In this document: piece after piece, positions 28,754 to 36,924 of the stretch | How the letters are laid out: each line of letters opens with the position of its first letter | Position numbering within the stretch: position 1 is the stretch's first letter | Assembly (NCBI RefSeq): GCF_050920415.1 | Contig: NZ_CP169309.1 | Strand: one strand, 5' to 3' | Length of the DNA: 64,000 nucleotides | Source: Escherichia coli | GTDB lineage: Bacteria; Pseudomonadota; Gammaproteobacteria; Enterobacterales; Enterobacteriaceae | The notes under the pieces: generated by a model | What the model was told of the DNA's origin: nothing | Databases searched by the model: none | What the model saw: only the letters and a program-made list of their open reading frames with translations | Position numbers and translations under genes: made by a program

Positions 28754-29992
28754 TTAATCAGGCTTTGGACAACGTTGTTCCTTCCAGCTGGCTACCGCCG
28801 CAATCCGCCGTCGGGTCAGCTCCTCGCGAATCTCCACACCTTTAAATCCCGCTTCAACGACGTCTTTTGTCGGCACTGACTGCGCCACTTCCCAGGCTTC
28901 GCGCAACCAGCGGCCTTGCGGGTAGTCCACCGATTCAAAACCGGTTCTGCCACGCACGTCAGCCTCGCTGGTCAACGCCAGTTGCTCGACACGCTGCGGT
29001 TTACGCCAGGCGTCGATGGAATCAAATAATTTGACGATGGTTTTTGGGTTCAGCATTGGGAAGGTATGGATGAGATCGTGAAACTCAGCCACCAGTCTGG
29101 CTAAATCGCGAATTTCATTTGGCACGCGCAGACGCTGGCATAGTTGTTCCACTAATTTCACACCCGCCGGGCCGTGACCATGATGACGCGGCCAAAGTTC
29201 TGGCGGCGTCAGGCCTTTACCGAGATCGTGGCATAACGTTGCGAAACGGACATCGACCTGCGGACTCAGCATTGCCGCCATGGAGAGCGTCATTAAGGTG
29301 TGAATACCGGTGTCGATTTCCGGATGCCACTTGGCGGGGGCCGGAACGCCAAACAGGGCGTCAATTTCCGGGAATAGAACGCGCAGGGCGCCGCAATCGC
29401 GCAGCACCTGGAAGAACACTTGTGGATTGCGGGTGGTGAGGGCACTTTCCGTCTCTTTCCACACCCGTTCAGGCGTCAGGTGTTCCAGTTCACCCGCGTG
29501 AGTCATCTCGCGCATTAGCGCCAGAGTTTCATCAGCAATACGAAAACCGAGGTGGGCATAACGTGCAGCAAAACGCGCCACGCGCAGTACACGTAACGGA
29601 TCTTCGCCAAAAGCGGGGGAAACATGGCGCAACAGACGATTTTGCAGATCGCCCAGACCGTTGTACGGGTCGATAATCTCGCCGTTATCGTCCTGGGCCA
29701 GCGCATTAATGGTCAGATCGCGCCGCTTAAGATCATCTTCCAGCGTGACATCCGGTGCGGCATAGCAGGTAAAACCGGTGTAACCGGAACCGGATTTCCG
29801 TTCGGTACGTGCCAGCGCATACTCTTCATGCGTTTGCGGATGCAGAAAAACAGGAAAATCGCGGCCTACCTGCTGGTAGCCCGCGTCGAGCATCTCCTGT
29901 GGCGTACTACCGACTACCACCCAATCTCTGTCTTTGACCGGTAGCCCTAACAATGCATCCCGAACAGCACCACCGACCAGATAAATCTTCAC
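28754..29992 (-). CDS. cca: tRNA CCA-adding nucleotidyltransferase / HD-domain phosphohydrolase Cca
   Basis: 412 aa [28 protein letters not shown]... plus HD domain. Confidence 0.95.
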
Positions 29993-30055
29993 GCCATCAT
30001 CCCTTCGTCAAATACACAATTCCTAATAATAAGACAGTGCAACGAAGAAGGCGAT

Positions 30056-30676
30056 TTAGTTCATCCAGCGATCTTTACGTTTGCGCGTTGGGATCAGGTG
30101 CGGCAGTACCAGACCGAGCAGCAAGCCAAGCCCCAGCACGCCGCCACCATACATAAACCACTGCATGATGATGGTGCGCTGTTTGTCATCCAGCTGCACG
30201 CTGGCGGCATCGACCTTTTTCTGCGCGACAATCAGCTCGTTTTTCAGTTTCTGATTTTCTTCTTTTAACCCGTTGATCACGCTGTCGCTCTGCGCCACTT
30301 TTTGCTGCATTTCTGCGGTGCGCTGATTCCAGGTGTTATCGATATTGGTGAGCTTATCGGTCAGGGTTTTGACCTGATTTTCCAGATCTGGCACACGGGA
30401 GCGCAGGCTTGGCTCTGTGCTAAGTTGTTTCAACGGGATCCAGGCGGTACGGCCAGAGCTGTCTTTCACCTGGGCATAATTGGTGTTGGCGTCAGTTTGT
30501 AATAAGGTCACTTCCTCGCCGGCGTTAACCGTGCCCACGAGGCGATAATGGTCTCCCGGACCGCTACGGACCCAGGTATTCAGTTCGTCGGAAACATAGC
30601 GCGTTTCTTCAGCGTGTGAGACGGCAGTCGCGCTAAGTGCGAGTAAAGTTAATCCGATCAGGCGTAATTTTGGCAT
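30056..30676 (-). CDS. ygiM: SH3-domain membrane protein YgiM
   Basis: 206 aa; signal peptide, SH3b-like region, coiled-coil, C-terminal TM anchor. Confidence 0.85.
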   Translation of the reverse strand: MPKLRLIGLTLLALSATAVSHAEETRYVSDELNTWVRSGPGDHYRLVGTVNAGEEVTLLQTDANTNYAQVKDSSGRTAWIPLKQLSTEPSLRSRVPDLENQVKTLTDKLTNIDNTWNQRTAEMQQKVAQSDSVINGLKEENQKLKNELIVAQKKVDAASVQLDDKQRTIIMQWFMYGGGVLGLGLLLGLVLPHLIPTRKRKDRWMN

Positions 30677-31018
30677 CAGGCTGTCGTTATTGTCATGGAA
30701 AGTGGAACGATAGTAGTGGCATCAGTGTCGCTACGCAAAGCATTCGACATCAATCGGAATCCTCTGTGTCAGGTCTTGCCACTGCTTCAAACTTTTACGC
30801 CCGTCAAATTGCCCGTTGCATGGCAATTTGGCGCAAAATACTATCTACTGACAAAAAAGATCGCATTAAGTTCGCCGTTCATCGTCACTTATGTGACATA
30901 ACCGATAAGTAAAGGCCTTGACATCCTCCCCCACCTTCGCGCAAAGCGACTCAGGAGGGGGATTCCCTTGTCAGGGTAGCAATACGTTGCCGCATTGCCC
31001 GGTTCCTCGCTCGACGGC

Positions 31019-32224
31019 TTACGCCGCCTTACGGGCGCGTCCTTTACGGACTGACGGCAATATTTGTCCTGCCGCCATGACTTCAAAACCTGCTGTTAAT
31101 ATATTTCGAGCGCCGTTTACATCGGCGTTTGCCGTATAGCCGCACGCGGTACAGATAAAGCTCGCCTGCGCCCTGTGGTTATTTTTCGATGTATGCCCAC
31201 AACATGCGCATTTCTGACTGGTGTACGCCGGATTAATCGCCAGCACATCACCGCCGCGCCATGCCTGCTTATATTCGAGCTGGCGGCGCATTTCTGCCCA
31301 GCCCTGATCCAGTATCGCCCGGTTAAGACCTGATTTTGCCGCGACGTTGCGCCCCGGCTGGTCTACCGTACCCGCTGCTGATTTTGACATGTTCGAAACC
31401 TTTAAATCCTCAATGACTATCATCGCGTGGTTTTTGCTGATCGTCGTCGTGGTTTTATGAAGGTAATCGCGGCGGATGTTTGCGATATGAGAGTGGAAAC
31501 GGGAAATCTTCGCTTTCTGCTTTTTCCAGTTGGCGGAGAATTTAACCTTCCGGGCCAGATGGCGCTGTAAGCGAGCCAGCTTATCCTGATTTTTTTTAAA
31601 GCTGTTTACCGGTTTAAAGACCGTGCCGTCTGAAAGTGTTGCCAGCTTCGTTATACCTGCATCCAGGCCTATTGCGCTGGTCGATGCGTGAATCGGATCG
31701 GTAACAGCTAATTCGACCTGAAAAGACACATACCAGTGTCCGGCATGCTGGCTGATGGTGCAATTTTTAATGACGCCTTCAATCTTCCGGGACTGACGAA
31801 ATTTAACCCAGCCCAGTCCTGACGGGAGTTTCACACGGCCATAATCCAGCCCACAATATTTGCTGAAATTGACGAACCGAATAGAGTCGCAGCCTTTGGT
31901 TTTCTTTTTGAAAACGGGCTTTTCAGCCGTCAGGGATTTATCAAAACAGCGATCCCATGCGCTCCGCAGGTCTTTCAGTTTCTGCTGGAGGTTGTCAGTG
32001 TAACCCTCAGCAAGAAAGGCCAGCTCAGGGAGTTTTTTCCAGCCCGTAAGTCGTTTATTCAGGTCGAAAGCTGACGGAATTTTTCCGCCCGCGTCATGAA
32101 TGCTCAGTGTTTCATTCAGTGCATAGTTCCAGACAAAGCGAGCGCAACCGCACAACTGACGCAACCTTTGCGCCTGCTGGTCAGTGGGGTAGAGCCTGTA
32201 TTTATATGCTTTCTGGATTAACAT
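31019..32224 (-). CDS. tnpB: TnpB (OrfB_IS605) RuvC-like putative RNA-guided endonuclease
   Basis: 401 aa; MLIQKAYKYRLYPT N-terminus; RuvC-I IGLDAGITK (Asp), RuvC-II IVIEDLKV (Glu), C-terminal zinc ribbon CACCGH..CTACGY followed by ADVNGARNI (Asp). Confidence 0.9.
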   Translation of the reverse strand: MLIQKAYKYRLYPTDQQAQRLRQLCGCARFVWNYALNETLSIHDAGGKIPSAFDLNKRLTGWKKLPELAFLAEGYTDNLQQKLKDLRSAWDRCFDKSLTAEKPVFKKKTKGCDSIRFVNFSKYCGLDYGRVKLPSGLGWVKFRQSRKIEGVIKNCTISQHAGHWYVSFQVELAVTDPIHASTSAIGLDAGITKLATLSDGTVFKPVNSFKKNQDKLARLQRHLARKVKFSANWKKQKAKISRFHSHIANIRRDYLHKTTTTISKNHAMIVIEDLKVSNMSKSAAGTVDQPGRNVAAKSGLNRAILDQGWAEMRRQLEYKQAWRGGDVLAINPAYTSQKCACCGHTSKNNHRAQASFICTACGYTANADVNGARNILTAGFEVMAAGQILPSVRKGRARKAA

Positions 32225-32236
32225 TTTGCATTCAGT

Positions 32237-32689
32237 ATGTGGTTATTTAGAATGTACAATATATCCACATTTTTTTGGGAGGATCAATACGTGTGCGAAA
32301 TCAATCGTTCACGCTATTCAGCTTACCTGTTGCATGTTCACGTTGTTTTTATGACAAAATACCGCCGTCCAGTTTTTGGTGAATTGCATCATGCAAACAT
32401 GCGTCAGTATGTAGCGGAGGTATGCGCGGACTTTGGCGCCGAGTTAAAGGAATGTGACGGCGAGGCAGATCATGTTCACATGCTGATTGAATACCCACCG
32501 TTGGTGCAACTCACAAAGCTGGTAAACAGCCTTAAGTCCGTTACCAGTAGGCGGCTGCGGAATGATTTTATTGATTTGCGCGCCGCGTATTCAAAGCCCG
32601 TACTCTGGTCACGCTCTTATTTCATCGGTTCATGTGGTGGAGCACCGCTGGAAGTTGTGAAAAAGTATATTCAGAATCAGCGTGGCTGA
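32237..32689 (+). CDS. tnpA: IS200/IS605 TnpA, Y1 HUH single-strand transposase
   Basis: 150 aa; HUH motif DHVHMLIEYP and catalytic Tyr region LWSRSYFIGSCGGAPLEVVKKYIQNQ, closely resembling IS608 TnpA; exact start codon uncertain. Confidence 0.88.
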   Translation: MWLFRMYNISTFFWEDQYVCEINRSRYSAYLLHVHVVFMTKYRRPVFGELHHANMRQYVAEVCADFGAELKECDGEADHVHMLIEYPPLVQLTKLVNSLKSVTSRRLRNDFIDLRAAYSKPVLWSRSYFIGSCGGAPLEVVKKYIQNQRG

Positions 32690-32759
32690 TAAACTGCGGG
32701 CTTAACAGCCCAAATTCCCCTCCCGCCTACGTTGGGGGGGAGTACCCAGTGGAGGAAGG

Positions 32760-34061
32760 ATGGCTCAGGAAATCGAATTAAAGTTTATTGTTAATCACAG
32801 TGCCGTTGAGGCGTTGCGTGACCATCTCAATACGCTGGGCGGCGAGCACCATGACCCCGTGCAGTTGCTGAATATTTACTACGAAACGCTGGATAACTGG
32901 CTGCGTGGGCACGACATGGGCTTACGTATCCGTGGCGAAAACGGTCGCTATGAGATGACCATGAAAGTTGCAGGAAGAGTGACAGGCGGCTTACACCAGC
33001 GCCCGGAATATAACGTGGCGTTGAGCGAACCGACGCTCGACCTGGCGCAGTTACCGACGGAAGTCTGGCCGAACGGTGAGTTACCAGCCGATCTCGCGTC
33101 CCGCGTGAAGCCACTGTTCAGCACCGATTTTTATCGCGAAAAATGGTTGGTGGAGGTCGATGGCAGCAGCATTGAAATCGCTCTCGATCAGGGCGAGGTG
33201 AAAGCGGGTGAATTTGCTGAGCCTATCTGCGAGCTGGAACTGGAGTTGCTTAGCGGCGATACGCGCGCGGTACTGAAACTGGCGAACCAACTGGTATCGC
33301 AAACCGGATTACGTCAGGGCAGCCTGAGCAAAGCCGCGCGCGGCTATAATCTGGCGCAGGGCAATCCCGCGCGTGAAATCAAACCGACCACCATTTTGCA
33401 TGTTGCGGCAAAAGCTGATGTGGAACAGGGGCTGGAAGCGGCGCTCGAGCTGGCGTTAGCGCAATGGCAGTATCATGAAGAACTGTGGGTACGTGGCAAC
33501 GATACGGCGAAAGAGCAGGTGCTGGCAGCCATCGGTCTGGTCCGTCATACGCTGATGCTGTTCGGCGGTATTGTGCCGCGTAAAGCGAGCACTCACTTAC
33601 GTGATTTGCTGACTCAATGCGAAGCGACCATCGCTTCAGCGGTGTCTGCCGTAACGGCGGTCTACTCTACCGAAACGGCGATGGCGAAGCTGGCGTTGAC
33701 CGAATGGCTGGTAAGCAAAGCCTGGCAGCCGTTTTTAGATGCCAAAGCGCAGGGCAAAATCAGCGATTCTTTCAAACGCTTTGCCGATATCCATCTTTCC
33801 CGCCATGCCGCTGAACTGAAAAGCGTTTTCTGCCAGCCATTAGGCGATCGCTACCGTGACCAATTGCCGCGCCTGACGCGTGACATTGACTCAATATTGT
33901 TGCTGGCGGGTTACTACGATCCTCTCGTCGCGCAAGCCTGGCTGGAGAACTGGCAGGGACTGCGTCATGCCATTGCGACCGGGCAACGCATTGAAATTGA
34001 ACATTTCCGTAATGAGGCAAACAATCAGGAACCGTTCTGGTTGCACAGCGGAAAACGTTAA
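32760..34061 (+). CDS. ygiF: inorganic triphosphatase YgiF (CYTH + CHAD domains)
   Basis: 433 aa [24 protein letters not shown]... typical CYTH N-terminus. Confidence 0.9.
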
Positions 34062-34083: not shown

Positions 34084-36924
34084 ATGAAGCCGCTCTCTTC
34101 ACCGTTACAGCAGTACTGGCAGACCGTTGTTGAGCGGCTGCCAGCGCCTTTAGCCGAGGAATCACTTAGTGCACAGGCGAAGTCAGTACTTACTTTTAGT
34201 GATTTTCTGCAGGACAGCATAATTGCGCATCCAGAGTGGCTGACGGAACTGGAAAGCCAACCGCCGCAGGCCGACGAATGGCAGCATTACACTGCATGGT
34301 TGCAGGAGGCGCTCAGTAATGTGAGTGACGAAGCCGGGTTAATGCGCGAGCTGCGGCTATTCCGGCGGCGCATTATGGTGCGCATCGCCTGGGCGCAAAC
34401 GCTGGCACTGGTTACTGAAGAGAGCATTTTGCAGCAGCTCAGTCATCTGGCGGAGACGCTGATTGTTGCGGCGCGTGACTGGCTGTATGACGCTTGCTGC
34501 CGCGAGTGGGGAACGCCGTGCAATGCGCAGGGCGAAGCGCAACCGCTGCTGATTTTAGGCATGGGTAAGCTGGGCGGTGGGGAGCTGAATTTCTCCTCAG
34601 ATATCGATCTGATTTTTGCCTGGCCGGAACATGGTTGCACGCAGGGCGGACGCAGGGAACTGGATAACGCTCAGTTCTTTACCCGCATGGGTCAGCGGCT
34701 GATTAAAGTGCTGGATCAACCAACGCAGGATGGCTTCGTCTATCGCGTGGATATGCGACTGCGTCCGTTTGGCGAAAGTGGCCCGCTGGTGCTGAGCTTT
34801 GCGGCACTGGAAGACTATTACCAGGAGCAGGGGCGCGACTGGGAGCGATACGCCATGGTCAAGGCGCGGATTATGGGCGATAGCGACGGCGTCTATGCTA
34901 ACGAGTTGCGTGCGATGCTGCGCCCGTTTGTTTTCCGCCGTTACATCGATTTCAGCGTGATCCAGTCGCTGCGCAACATGAAAGGAATGATTGCCCGTGA
35001 AGTGCGCCGACGCGGTTTGACCGACAACATCAAACTTGGCGCGGGTGGCATTCGCGAAATTGAATTTATCGTCCAGGTATTCCAGCTCATTCGCGGCGGG
35101 CGCGAACCGTCGCTGCAATCGCGCTCTTTACTGCCAACGCTCAGCGCCATTGCCGCGCTGCATCTGCTTTCTGAAAACGATGCTGAACAATTGCGAGTGG
35201 CGTATCTGTTCCTGCGGCGCCTGGAAAACCTGCTGCAAAGCATTAACGACGAACAAACCCAGACACTTCCTTCTGATGAGCTTAACCGTGCGCGGCTGGC
35301 GTGGGCGATGGACTTTGCTGACTGGCCGCAACTGACCGGGGCGCTGACCGGACATATGACCAATGTGCGCCGGGTGTTTAACGAATTGATTGGCGATGAC
35401 GAAAGCGAAACTCAGGAAGAGTCGCTGTCGGAACAGTGGCGTGAGCTGTGGCAGGATGCGTTGCAGGAAGATGACACTACGCCAGTACTGGCGCATCTTA
35501 GCGAAGATGATCGCAAACAGGTGCTAACACTGATTGCCGATTTCCGCAAAGAGCTGGATAAGCGCACAATCGGGCCGCGAGGACGTCAGGTGCTCGACCA
35601 TCTGATGCCGCATCTGCTAAGTGATGTCTGTGCGCGTGAAGACGCTGCTGTCACGCTGTCGCGCATTACCGCCTTGCTGGTGGGGATTGTTACCCGCACT
35701 ACCTATTTAGAATTGCTTAGTGAATTCCCCGCGGCGCTTAAGCATTTGATTTCTCTGTGTGCCGCATCGCCGATGATTGCCAGCCAACTGGCGCGTTATC
35801 CATTATTGCTGGACGAACTGCTCGATCCAAACACTCTCTACCAGCCGACGGCGACGGATGCCTACCGTGATGAACTGCGCCAGTATTTGCTGCGCGTGCC
35901 GGAAGATGACGAAGAGCAACAGCTTGAGGCGCTGCGTCAGTTCAAACAGGCGCAACTTTTACGCATCGCGGCGGCGGATATCGCCGGTACGCTACCGGTC
36001 ATGAAAGTGAGCGATCACTTAACCTGGCTGGCAGAAGCCATGATAGATGCTGTCGTACAACAGGCATGGGTTCAAATGGTTGCCCGCTACGGTAAGCCAA
36101 ATCACCTGAACGAACGCGAAGGGCGTGGTTTTGCGGTGGTCGGCTACGGCAAGCTGGGCGGCTGGGAGTTAGGCTACAGTTCCGATCTTGACCTGATCTT
36201 CCTCCATGATTGCCCAATGGATGCAATGACTGACGGCGAGCGGGAAATCGACGGACGACAGTTTTATCTGCGTCTGGCGCAACGCATTATGCATCTGTTC
36301 AGTACGCGCACCTCTTCCGGCATTTTGTATGAAGTGGATGCTCGACTGCGTCCGTCCGGGGCGGCGGGAATGCTGGTCACCTCTGCAGAAGCGTTTGCCG
36401 ATTATCAGAAAAACGAGGCCTGGACGTGGGAACATCAGGCGCTGGTGCGTGCGCGTGTAGTGTACGGCGATCCGCAGCTCACCGCGCACTTTGACGCGGT
36501 GCGTCGCGAGATTATGACGCTGCCGCGTGAAGGTAAAACTCTGCAAACGGAAGTGCGGGAAATGCGCGAGAAAATGCGCGCTCATCTCGGCAATAAACAT
36601 CGCGATCGCTTTGATATCAAAGCCGATGAAGGCGGAATTACCGATATCGAATTTATTACCCAATATCTGGTGTTGCGCTACGCTCATGAAAAACCGAAGT
36701 TAACGCGCTGGTCAGACAACGTGCGTATTCTGGAGCTGCTGGCGCAAAACGACATTATGGAAGAGCAGGAAGCGATGGTGCTGACCCGTGCTTACACTAC
36801 GCTGCGCGATGAACTTCATCATCTGGCATTACAGGAATTGCCGGGCCATGTGTCGGAGGATTGCTTCACCGCAGAGCGTGATCTGGTGCGGGCAAGCTGG
36901 CAGAAGTGGCTGGTGGAAGAATGA
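34084..36924 (+). CDS. glnE: bifunctional glutamine synthetase adenylyltransferase/adenylyl-removing enzyme GlnE
   Basis: 946 aa from [20 protein letters not shown]; the 1014 aa ORF-track call from 33880 overlaps the ygiF 3' end and is an upstream extension. Confidence 0.93.

Follow-up and report, generated by a model that had tools for sequence, protein, structure and literature searches.

In IS605 of Helicobacter pylori, the genes tnpA and tnpB are arranged divergently within one element of the IS200/IS605 family. The same arrangement is found in the element considered here, which differs from IS605 in sequence, target and host, and is located between the genes ygiM and ygiF of Escherichia coli, at positions 30918-32759 of a 64,000-nucleotide stretch of contig NZ_CP169309.1 (assembly GCF_050920415.1; the whole stretch is referred to below as the window). 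In another insertion sequence (IS) of the family, IS608, cleavage on the left takes place outside the element, 19 nt 5' of the foot of the left hairpin, and on the right at TCAA, 10 nt 3' of the foot of the right hairpin, both sites being recognised by four guide bases 5' of the respective hairpin (PMC3201880). The name ISEc41 is used in three papers, and an element so named has been reported in a B2 isolate of sequence type (ST) 12, on a contig with kps and terC, by a MobileElementFinder-type analysis (PMC9756432).

With high confidence, we regard the interval 30918-32759 as a structurally complete, autonomous-type IS200/IS605 element of the ISEc41 kind. The element is already known and annotated in RefSeq, being present in CFT073, Nissle 1917 and ATCC 25922; in all listed genomes the RefSeq (PGAP) annotation names its TnpA "IS200/IS605-like element ISEc41 family transposase" and also reports TnpB. 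The label ISEc41 follows this product name and the usage in the literature, and the window copy would be ISEc41 itself or an isoform of it. Literature searches combining ygiF with IS605 and TnpB with Nissle yielded nothing specific, and no paper discussing the ygiF junction was found.

The insertion site and the limits of the element

The element has a length of 1842 bp, and its last base touches the ATG of ygiF, a gene for inorganic triphosphatase (32760-34061, plus strand), at position 32760. As defined by the empty site and by the ends of relatives, its top strand, which is the sense strand of tnpB, is the minus strand of the window. The empty site in MG1655 joins ...TAAAGGCC directly to ATGGCTCAGG, the surroundings of the junction being ...GATAAGTAAAGGCC on one side and ATGGCTCAGGAA... 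on the other, whereas in the window the same ...TAAAGGCC is followed by the element, TTGACATCC...GGAGGAAGG, and then by ATGGCTCAGG. In this comparison, we observed neither a duplicated base at the insertion nor terminal inverted repeats, and the 241-bp ygiM-ygiF intergenic DNA is fully kept in the window, being identical to that of MG1655.

For a broader comparison we used 5426 complete E. coli genomes, counting carriers of the element at an identity of at least 99%. The 1842 bp are absent from 5279 of 5425 genomes, where the empty site is clean. If the 1.8 kb were conserved non-mobile chromosomal DNA, they would hardly be missing from most of the species, nor would their relatives be found on plasmids of many genera; no point in support of this explanation was found, and we consider it refuted, with a negligible residual probability. 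The initial annotation had placed an IS200/IS605-family element with a Y1 HUH transposase, a TnpB and subterminal hairpins between ygiM and ygiF, and had proposed an alignment to MG1655 to define the empty site. The profile matches, the empty site that the alignment indeed defines and the sharp ends all agree with this proposal; the distance of 10-60 bp given there between the end of the element and the ygiF start codon is in fact 0 bp.

The limits are supported by the relatives, for which we aligned six plasmid copies and then searched 36 chromosomal loci found by the TnpB protein. A distant BLASTN search of the element against plasmids gave 467 near-full-length relatives with 70-77% identity in Klebsiella, Escherichia, Salmonella, Citrobacter, Arsenophonus and others, the alignments starting at query positions 3-13 and stopping at 1842. 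In at least nine independent copies, the flanks diverge exactly at both limits of the element. The tetranucleotide CCAT is situated directly 5' of the left end in nine independent insertions (the window and loci L004-L009, L018 and L019); it is present in every independent copy of the close subfamily, while the base preceding it is variable. The right end finishes with ...GGGGAGGATGTCAA, and its form ...GGAGGATGTCAA does not vary among over 35 loci whose TnpB identity goes down to 46%, with unrelated flanks beyond it. Given this conservation of the left flank and of the right end, we conclude that CCAT serves as the target and that the element has TCAA at its right tip. The locus thus has a fixed tetranucleotide at the left end and a conserved cleavage motif at the right tip, with imperfect subterminal hairpins at both ends and with neither target duplication nor terminal inverted repeats, as is usual for the IS200/IS605 family.

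In the window, the target tetranucleotide (32760-32763, minus strand), which is also the presumed transposon-associated motif (TAM), belongs to the flank and not to the element. It reads ATGG on the plus strand, and the left end adjoins the start codon because CCAT is the complement of the ygiF ATGG. A preference of the whole family for gene starts was considered and rejected, as the open reading frame (ORF) running outward from ATGG in eight relatives comprises only 9-37 aa. Since relatives show no tendency towards gene starts, the ygiF case is a coincidence of the target and the start codon. A scan of species-representative genomes with TnpB revealed nothing above approximately 80% amino acid identity outside E. 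coli, and no donor was identified.

As a side observation, Klebsiella/E. coli hybrid plasmids contain several IS605-type TnpB elements side by side (L003, NZ_CP068707.1, 99334-104042; L005, 2506, minus), one of them a truncated zinc-ribbon fragment, as well as extra right-end-like motifs, which looks like a pile-up of related elements.

The ends, the transposase and TnpB

Both palindromes described in the initial annotation are present, tcctccccc (30924-30932) being matched by ggaggggga (30954-30962), and cccctccc (32717-32724) by gggggggag (32734-32742). Read on the minus strand, the left end starts with a 17-nt linker, CCTTCCTCCACTGGGTA (32743-32759), whose plus strand ...GGAGGAAGG stands directly before the ygiF ATG. 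It is followed by the left subterminal hairpin CTCCCCCC(C)..GGCGGGAG (32720-32742, minus strand), obtained by DNA folding, in which stem position 6 is a C.C mismatch. The linker ends in GGTA (32743-32746), just 5' of the hairpin foot, and each of these four bases is complementary to the corresponding one of CCAT; as they occupy the place of the guide tetranucleotide of IS608, GGTA and CCAT may by analogy form a guide/target interaction.

The left hairpin of relatives is CTCCCGCC/GGCGGGAG, and the variants CTCCCACC/GGTGGGAG in L008 and CTCCCTCC/GGAGGGAG in L020 represent compensatory changes. Most relatives have G-C at stem position 6, L008 has A-T and L020 has T-A; along with the C.C of the window, mismatches occur in L005 and L009 (A.C) and in L017 (T.T). 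As several relatives are mismatched at the same position, the mismatch in the window is poor evidence of inactivation. The ST73 copies have six rather than seven G at 32734-32740, in the run forming the top-strand 5' arm of this hairpin.

At the right end, the predicted hairpin TCCCCC-T-CCT..TCGC-TTTGC-GCGA..AGG-T-GGGGGA (30927-30962, minus strand) is preceded by GGAA(T), at the position of the right-end guide of IS608. Its inner stem covaries (TCGC/GCGA versus TCAC/GTGA), and the outer one shows conservation across more than 35 loci. The cleavage tetranucleotide TCAA comprises the last four bases of the element (30918-30921, minus strand) and is separated from the hairpin foot by 5 nt (GGATG) on the 3' side.

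Compared with IS608 (ISHp608), the element has a homologous TnpA with aligned HUH and tyrosine residues, subterminal hairpins, a left cleavage site outside the element approximately 17-19 nt 5' of the hairpin, and the same TCAA at the right end. The differences are the target (TTAC in IS608, CCAT here), the gene order (tnpA and tnpB co-directional and overlapping in IS608, divergent here), an extra inner stem in the right-end hairpin, and the spacing between its foot and TCAA, 5 nt here versus 10 nt in IS608.

The tnpA gene is on the plus strand, its maximal ORF, which is also the RefSeq annotation, starting from ATG 32237 and encoding 150 aa. This product matches Y1_Tnp of Pfam (6.8e-39) and, above the cut-off, transpos_IS200 of NCBIfam (NF033573, 6.5e-41). 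The HUH residues H79 and H81 and the catalytic Y144 (ORF numbering) are invariant among relatives; in the alignment with ISHp608 TnpA (2a6m, 1.5e-20), DHVHML corresponds to DHIHIL, and VVKKYIQNQ, containing the catalytic tyrosine, to VVKQYIENQ. The annotated ORF has 18 N-terminal residues without conservation, the conserved part beginning at residues 19-23; relatives start at alignment column 17, and the profile matches begin at residues 23-29. The in-frame GTG at 32291 is preceded, at 7 nt, by GGGAGGA, and a plus-strand promoter-like site, TTTGCA-17-TAGAAT (32225-32253; a consensus match), would start transcription downstream of ATG 32237. Judging by these features, the gene probably starts at GTG 32291 (32291-32689, 132 aa), and the true gap between the start codons of tnpA and tnpB is then 66 bp. 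This gap constitutes a divergent control region (32225-32290) with promoter-like sites on both strands, that of the minus strand being TTGATC-18-TATATT (32287-32258; likewise a consensus match). Thus, of the initially described divergent pair with start codons 12 bp apart, the divergence holds, and the 12 bp hold for the ORFs and the RefSeq annotation, the real gap likely being longer.

The tnpB gene (31019-32224, minus strand) encodes 401 aa, as had been annotated, and its product is an RNA-guided endonuclease by homology, with intact RuvC residues D188/E272/D368 and an intact zinc finger C339-x2-C / C358-x2-C. It matches the Pfam domains HTH_OrfB_IS605, OrfB_IS605 and Cas12f1-like_TNB, and the NCBIfam family guided_TnpB (NF040570) with 2.7e-106 and 356 bits at a cut-off of 100. 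Residues 2-379 align to TnpB of ISDra2 (8h1j, 8bf8, 8exa; 8.5e-49), with GLDAGI, VIEDLK and NADVNG matching the catalytic motifs. Among solved structures, the top match is 9yyg (7.2e-59), described as an "AI-designed RNA-guided nuclease", with the natural ISDra2 TnpB ranking behind it. The motif with E272 is followed by an insertion of approximately 15 residues, AAGTVDQPGRNVAAK, absent from both 9yyg and ISDra2 TnpB.

A structured scaffold resembling ωRNA (30918-31110, minus strand) overlaps the 3' end of tnpB and the right end, and finishes at the boundary of the element. We aligned the last 180 nt before this boundary from 23 homologous loci and obtained a consensus with 31 pairs, 13 of them with compensatory changes. 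Paired cells constitute 95.8%, compared with 89.9% in column shuffles (none of 500 reached the observed value) and 40-55% when the partners were slid. In this consensus, an AAUAUU-like stretch in the coding end of tnpB forms a long-range helix with GGAUGU beside the boundary; for the window copy, the folding energy is -90.2 kcal/mol (z = -4.65). No Rfam family was found in 29500-34000 at E<=1, hence the RNA has no library name.

The likeness to ISDra2 of Deinococcus radiodurans thus includes the conserved D/E/D residues and zinc finger of TnpB and an ωRNA-like structure that overlaps the 3' end of tnpB and stops at the right-end boundary, whereas the 15-residue insertion distinguishes the two proteins. 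If the donor-joint targeting logic described for ISDra2 and ISGst elements (PMC10055086) applies here, the guide would be the flank GGCCTTTACTTATCGGTTAT (30898-30917, minus strand) and the TAM would be CCAT, which together rebuild exactly the empty ygiM-ygiF allele of IS-free strains. The assignment of CCAT as the TAM relies on the insertion sites, and this presumed TAM is GC-rich, whereas those of ISDra2 and ISGst are TTGAT and AT-rich, respectively. In the window, there is one occurrence of the guide 16-mer, and CCAT does not stand before it. As the guide-matching DNA at the occupied allele is preceded by ...GTCAA and not by CCAT, no self-cleavage would be expected there. In strain 2013C-4282, the flank base adjoining the right end (30917), with which the presumed guide begins, has changed from C to T.

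In having one fixed place in the chromosome and an unchanging guide beside a host gene, the element also resembles TldR, the domesticated nuclease-dead TnpB relatives. This assignment was rejected, as the element retains the RuvC D/E/D residues, tnpA and its two ends, and as the guide is no more than the flank of the insertion.

Distribution and spread among E. coli lineages

The element is carried by 146 of the 5426 genomes (approximately 3%), including CFT073, Nissle 1917, ATCC 25922 and clone D, with one copy per genome, always at the ygiF junction. Searching with a junction sequence of 120 bp from the element plus 120 bp from ygiF, we obtained full coverage in the same number of genomes, 146. 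An identical TnpB protein also occurs on 24 further contigs, in all 24 cases in the context glnE-ygiF-tnpA-tnpB-ygiM-cca. In the window, the neighbours are cca (28754-29992) and ygiM (30056-30676), both on the minus strand, and glnE (34084-36924), downstream of ygiF.

The element is far less diverged than its surroundings. Between the window and CFT073, it has 15 differences in 1842 bp (0.81%), while ygiM, ygiF and glnE differ by 2.4%, 4.3% and 4.2%, respectively. Among eight IS-bearing strains, the element differs by 0-0.8%, the left 4 kb by 0-3.5% and the right 4 kb by 0-5%; between lineages, the element differs by 0.2-0.8%, and the flanks by 3-4% for B2 versus the rest. The same tendency is observed for the synonymous divergence (dS) among IS-bearing lineages, which is approximately 0.007-0.011 in tnpB and 0.08-0.23 in ygiF. 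The window alleles of cca, ygiF and glnE have at least 99% identity in only 1-2 other genomes, the next best being approximately 97.6%, and despite these rare neighbour alleles, the window copy of the element is 99.2-99.7% identical to copies in other lineages.

If the common site resulted from repeated independent insertions by TnpA into a strongly preferred target, copies should be expected at other preferred sites as well. The family does have a fixed target, CCAT, but this tetranucleotide occurs 499 times per 64 kb, so that approximately 36,000 sites are expected per genome, none of which is occupied elsewhere; moreover, the relatives sit in unrelated contexts. We thus consider repeated insertion highly unlikely. 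As the element is far less diverged than its neighbours and no other CCAT site is occupied, it must, judging by these sequence comparisons, have been homologous recombination at this locus, and not fresh transposition, that carried the IS allele from lineage to lineage. Within B2, the IS-bearing strains share one ygiF allele, and there are about 600 IS-free genomes with alleles 99.1-99.4% identical to it; this pattern fits one acquisition in a B2 sub-lineage.

Recombination could have been assisted by TnpB and its ωRNA, homing having carried the element to the same ygiF-ATG site in B2 (ST73/ST12 type) and several non-B2 lineages. We regard this as a speculative and rather improbable scenario. 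The single site and the contrast between the dS of the element (approximately 0.01) and that of its neighbours (0.1-0.2) fit it, but a tolerated insertion that spread by ordinary homologous recombination would account for them equally well. No variation among strains, with IS-free MG1655 among them, is seen in the 241-bp intergenic region, in the adjoining approximately 40 bp at the start of ygiM or in the first 83 bp of ygiF. Due to this invariance of the sequences adjacent to the element, the ends of the conversion tracts cannot be placed, and homing and plain recombination are not separable.

The ygiF gene itself is unusually polymorphic and mosaic. The window allele is found at an identity of at least 99% in only 2 of 5425 genomes, while in 1125 genomes the identity is only 90-95%; pairwise dS is 0.08-0.23, the ratio of non-synonymous to synonymous divergence (dN/dS) is low, and patterns of single nucleotide polymorphisms are shared in blocks. 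Strain N96 has the alleles of the element, ygiF and glnE in common with the window, and a different allele of cca.

Consequences for ygiF and mobility of the element

The ygiF ORF is intact, with no in-frame alternative start between the stop codon at 32703 and the ATG, and its dN/dS of 0.02-0.13 among IS-bearing lineages indicates purifying selection; much of the ygiF divergence may predate the insertion. The region upstream of the start codon is altered. The 20 nt before the ATG changed from the native ...GAUAAGUAAAGGCC to ...CCAGUGGAGGAAGG, and the predicted pairing of the Shine-Dalgarno sequence with the 3' end of 16S rRNA changed from -3.5 kcal/mol for the native MG1655 leader to -9.3 kcal/mol with the element. 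The native intergenic region is now situated 1842 bp upstream of ygiF, across the antisense tnpB. Thus, the earlier suggestion that the native ygiF promoter may have been replaced needs correction: the upstream DNA is kept and displaced by 1842 bp, and it is the sequence adjoining the ATG, including the Shine-Dalgarno sequence, that was replaced.

The tnpA gene has the same direction as ygiF and stops 70 bp before it, and no terminator-like site was found between the two genes. The small hairpin GGGCT-TAAC-AGCCC predicted by folding in this interval (32698-32711) is situated past the tnpA stop codon and before the left-end hairpin, and its stem is conserved in relatives (GGACGGGCTTGAAAAGCCCG). 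Lacking a T-run on both strands, it does not qualify as a canonical terminator, and no terminator is called there on the plus strand. With the native upstream region 1.8 kb away, transcription of ygiF probably comes from read-through of tnpA or from long read-through across the element. Altered expression of ygiF-glnE is plausible.

By analogy with IS608, TnpA would bind the two subterminal hairpins of the top strand and cut 3' of CCAT on the left and 3' of TCAA on the right, the sites being picked by short guide bases 5' of the hairpins. The element would then leave as a single-stranded circle, and the donor site would reseal without a scar; entry would have occurred into single-stranded DNA 3' of CCAT, on the strand opposite to ygiF. 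By analogy with ISDra2 and ISGst, TnpB would load the ωRNA formed by the 3' end of tnpB and the right end, with a 3' guide transcribed from the ygiM-side flank, and the complex would cut the empty allele, CCAT followed by GGCCTTTACTTATCGG, forcing repair from the IS-bearing copy.

If the K-12 synteny holds, ygiF is, according to the K-12 map positions, co-directional with the replication fork, and the top strand of the element would be in the leading-strand template, an orientation reported as less favoured for IS608. This orientation was considered as a possible reason for immobility; ISGst2 excises from either template (PMC10055086).

Several observations weigh against our reading of the locus as an autonomous-type element. 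There is no second insertion site in any of the 5426 genomes, hence no natural trace of movement within E. coli. The constraint on TnpB may be relaxed, as dN/dS of tnpB is approximately 0.3-0.7 (2-3 synonymous and 2-7 non-synonymous changes). The left hairpin has the C.C mismatch and a variable C-run, though some relatives are mismatched at the same position, and HpyTnpB of IS608 was inactive in a comparable assay (PMC10055086).

These facts are in line with the element being an immobilised relic or being domesticated, either as a neutral passenger or with ygiF-glnE depending on its ribosome-binding site and tnpA promoter. Such a state is compatible with the identification of the element as such. 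A relic would be expected to remain at one site, as is observed in the 146 genomes and 24 further contigs, and to tolerate the dN/dS of 0.3-0.7 in tnpB within E. coli and the mismatch and indel polymorphism of the left hairpin; on the other hand, it would not necessarily retain two full-length ORFs in every lineage examined and in all sampled annotations, nor the intact catalytic residues, both ends and the ωRNA fold, and the substitution counts are too small to tell dN/dS from 0.2 or 1. Domestication is favoured by the IS-borne Shine-Dalgarno sequence being stronger than the native one and by the lack of a terminator-like site downstream of tnpA. However, GGAGG at the left tip is also present in L008, which is not next to a gene, and hence need not be an adaptation. 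We consider a relic or domesticated state a less likely, though realistic, alternative. The specific proposal that the GGAGG of the left tip arose as a post-insertion adaptation was found to be unsupported, given that L008 has it without a neighbouring gene; the left tip differs from relatives by about the element-wide 23-25%.

Independently of the current activity, the locus is a clean natural example of the 4-nt target of an IS200/IS605 element coinciding with a start codon, where the host ORF survives, the ribosome-binding site is replaced and the promoter region is displaced by 1.8 kb. This junction matters for studies of ygiF-glnE expression in ST73-type strains. If homing does operate, IS-bearing DNA would enter a naive cell, TnpB would cut the empty CCAT site and repair would copy the element, amounting to a natural chromosomal gene drive; as a side effect, the left end and the tnpA promoter would supply the translation and transcription signals of ygiF-glnE. 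The one-site distribution and the low divergence of the element make it a convenient natural case for studying TnpB-guided allele spread.

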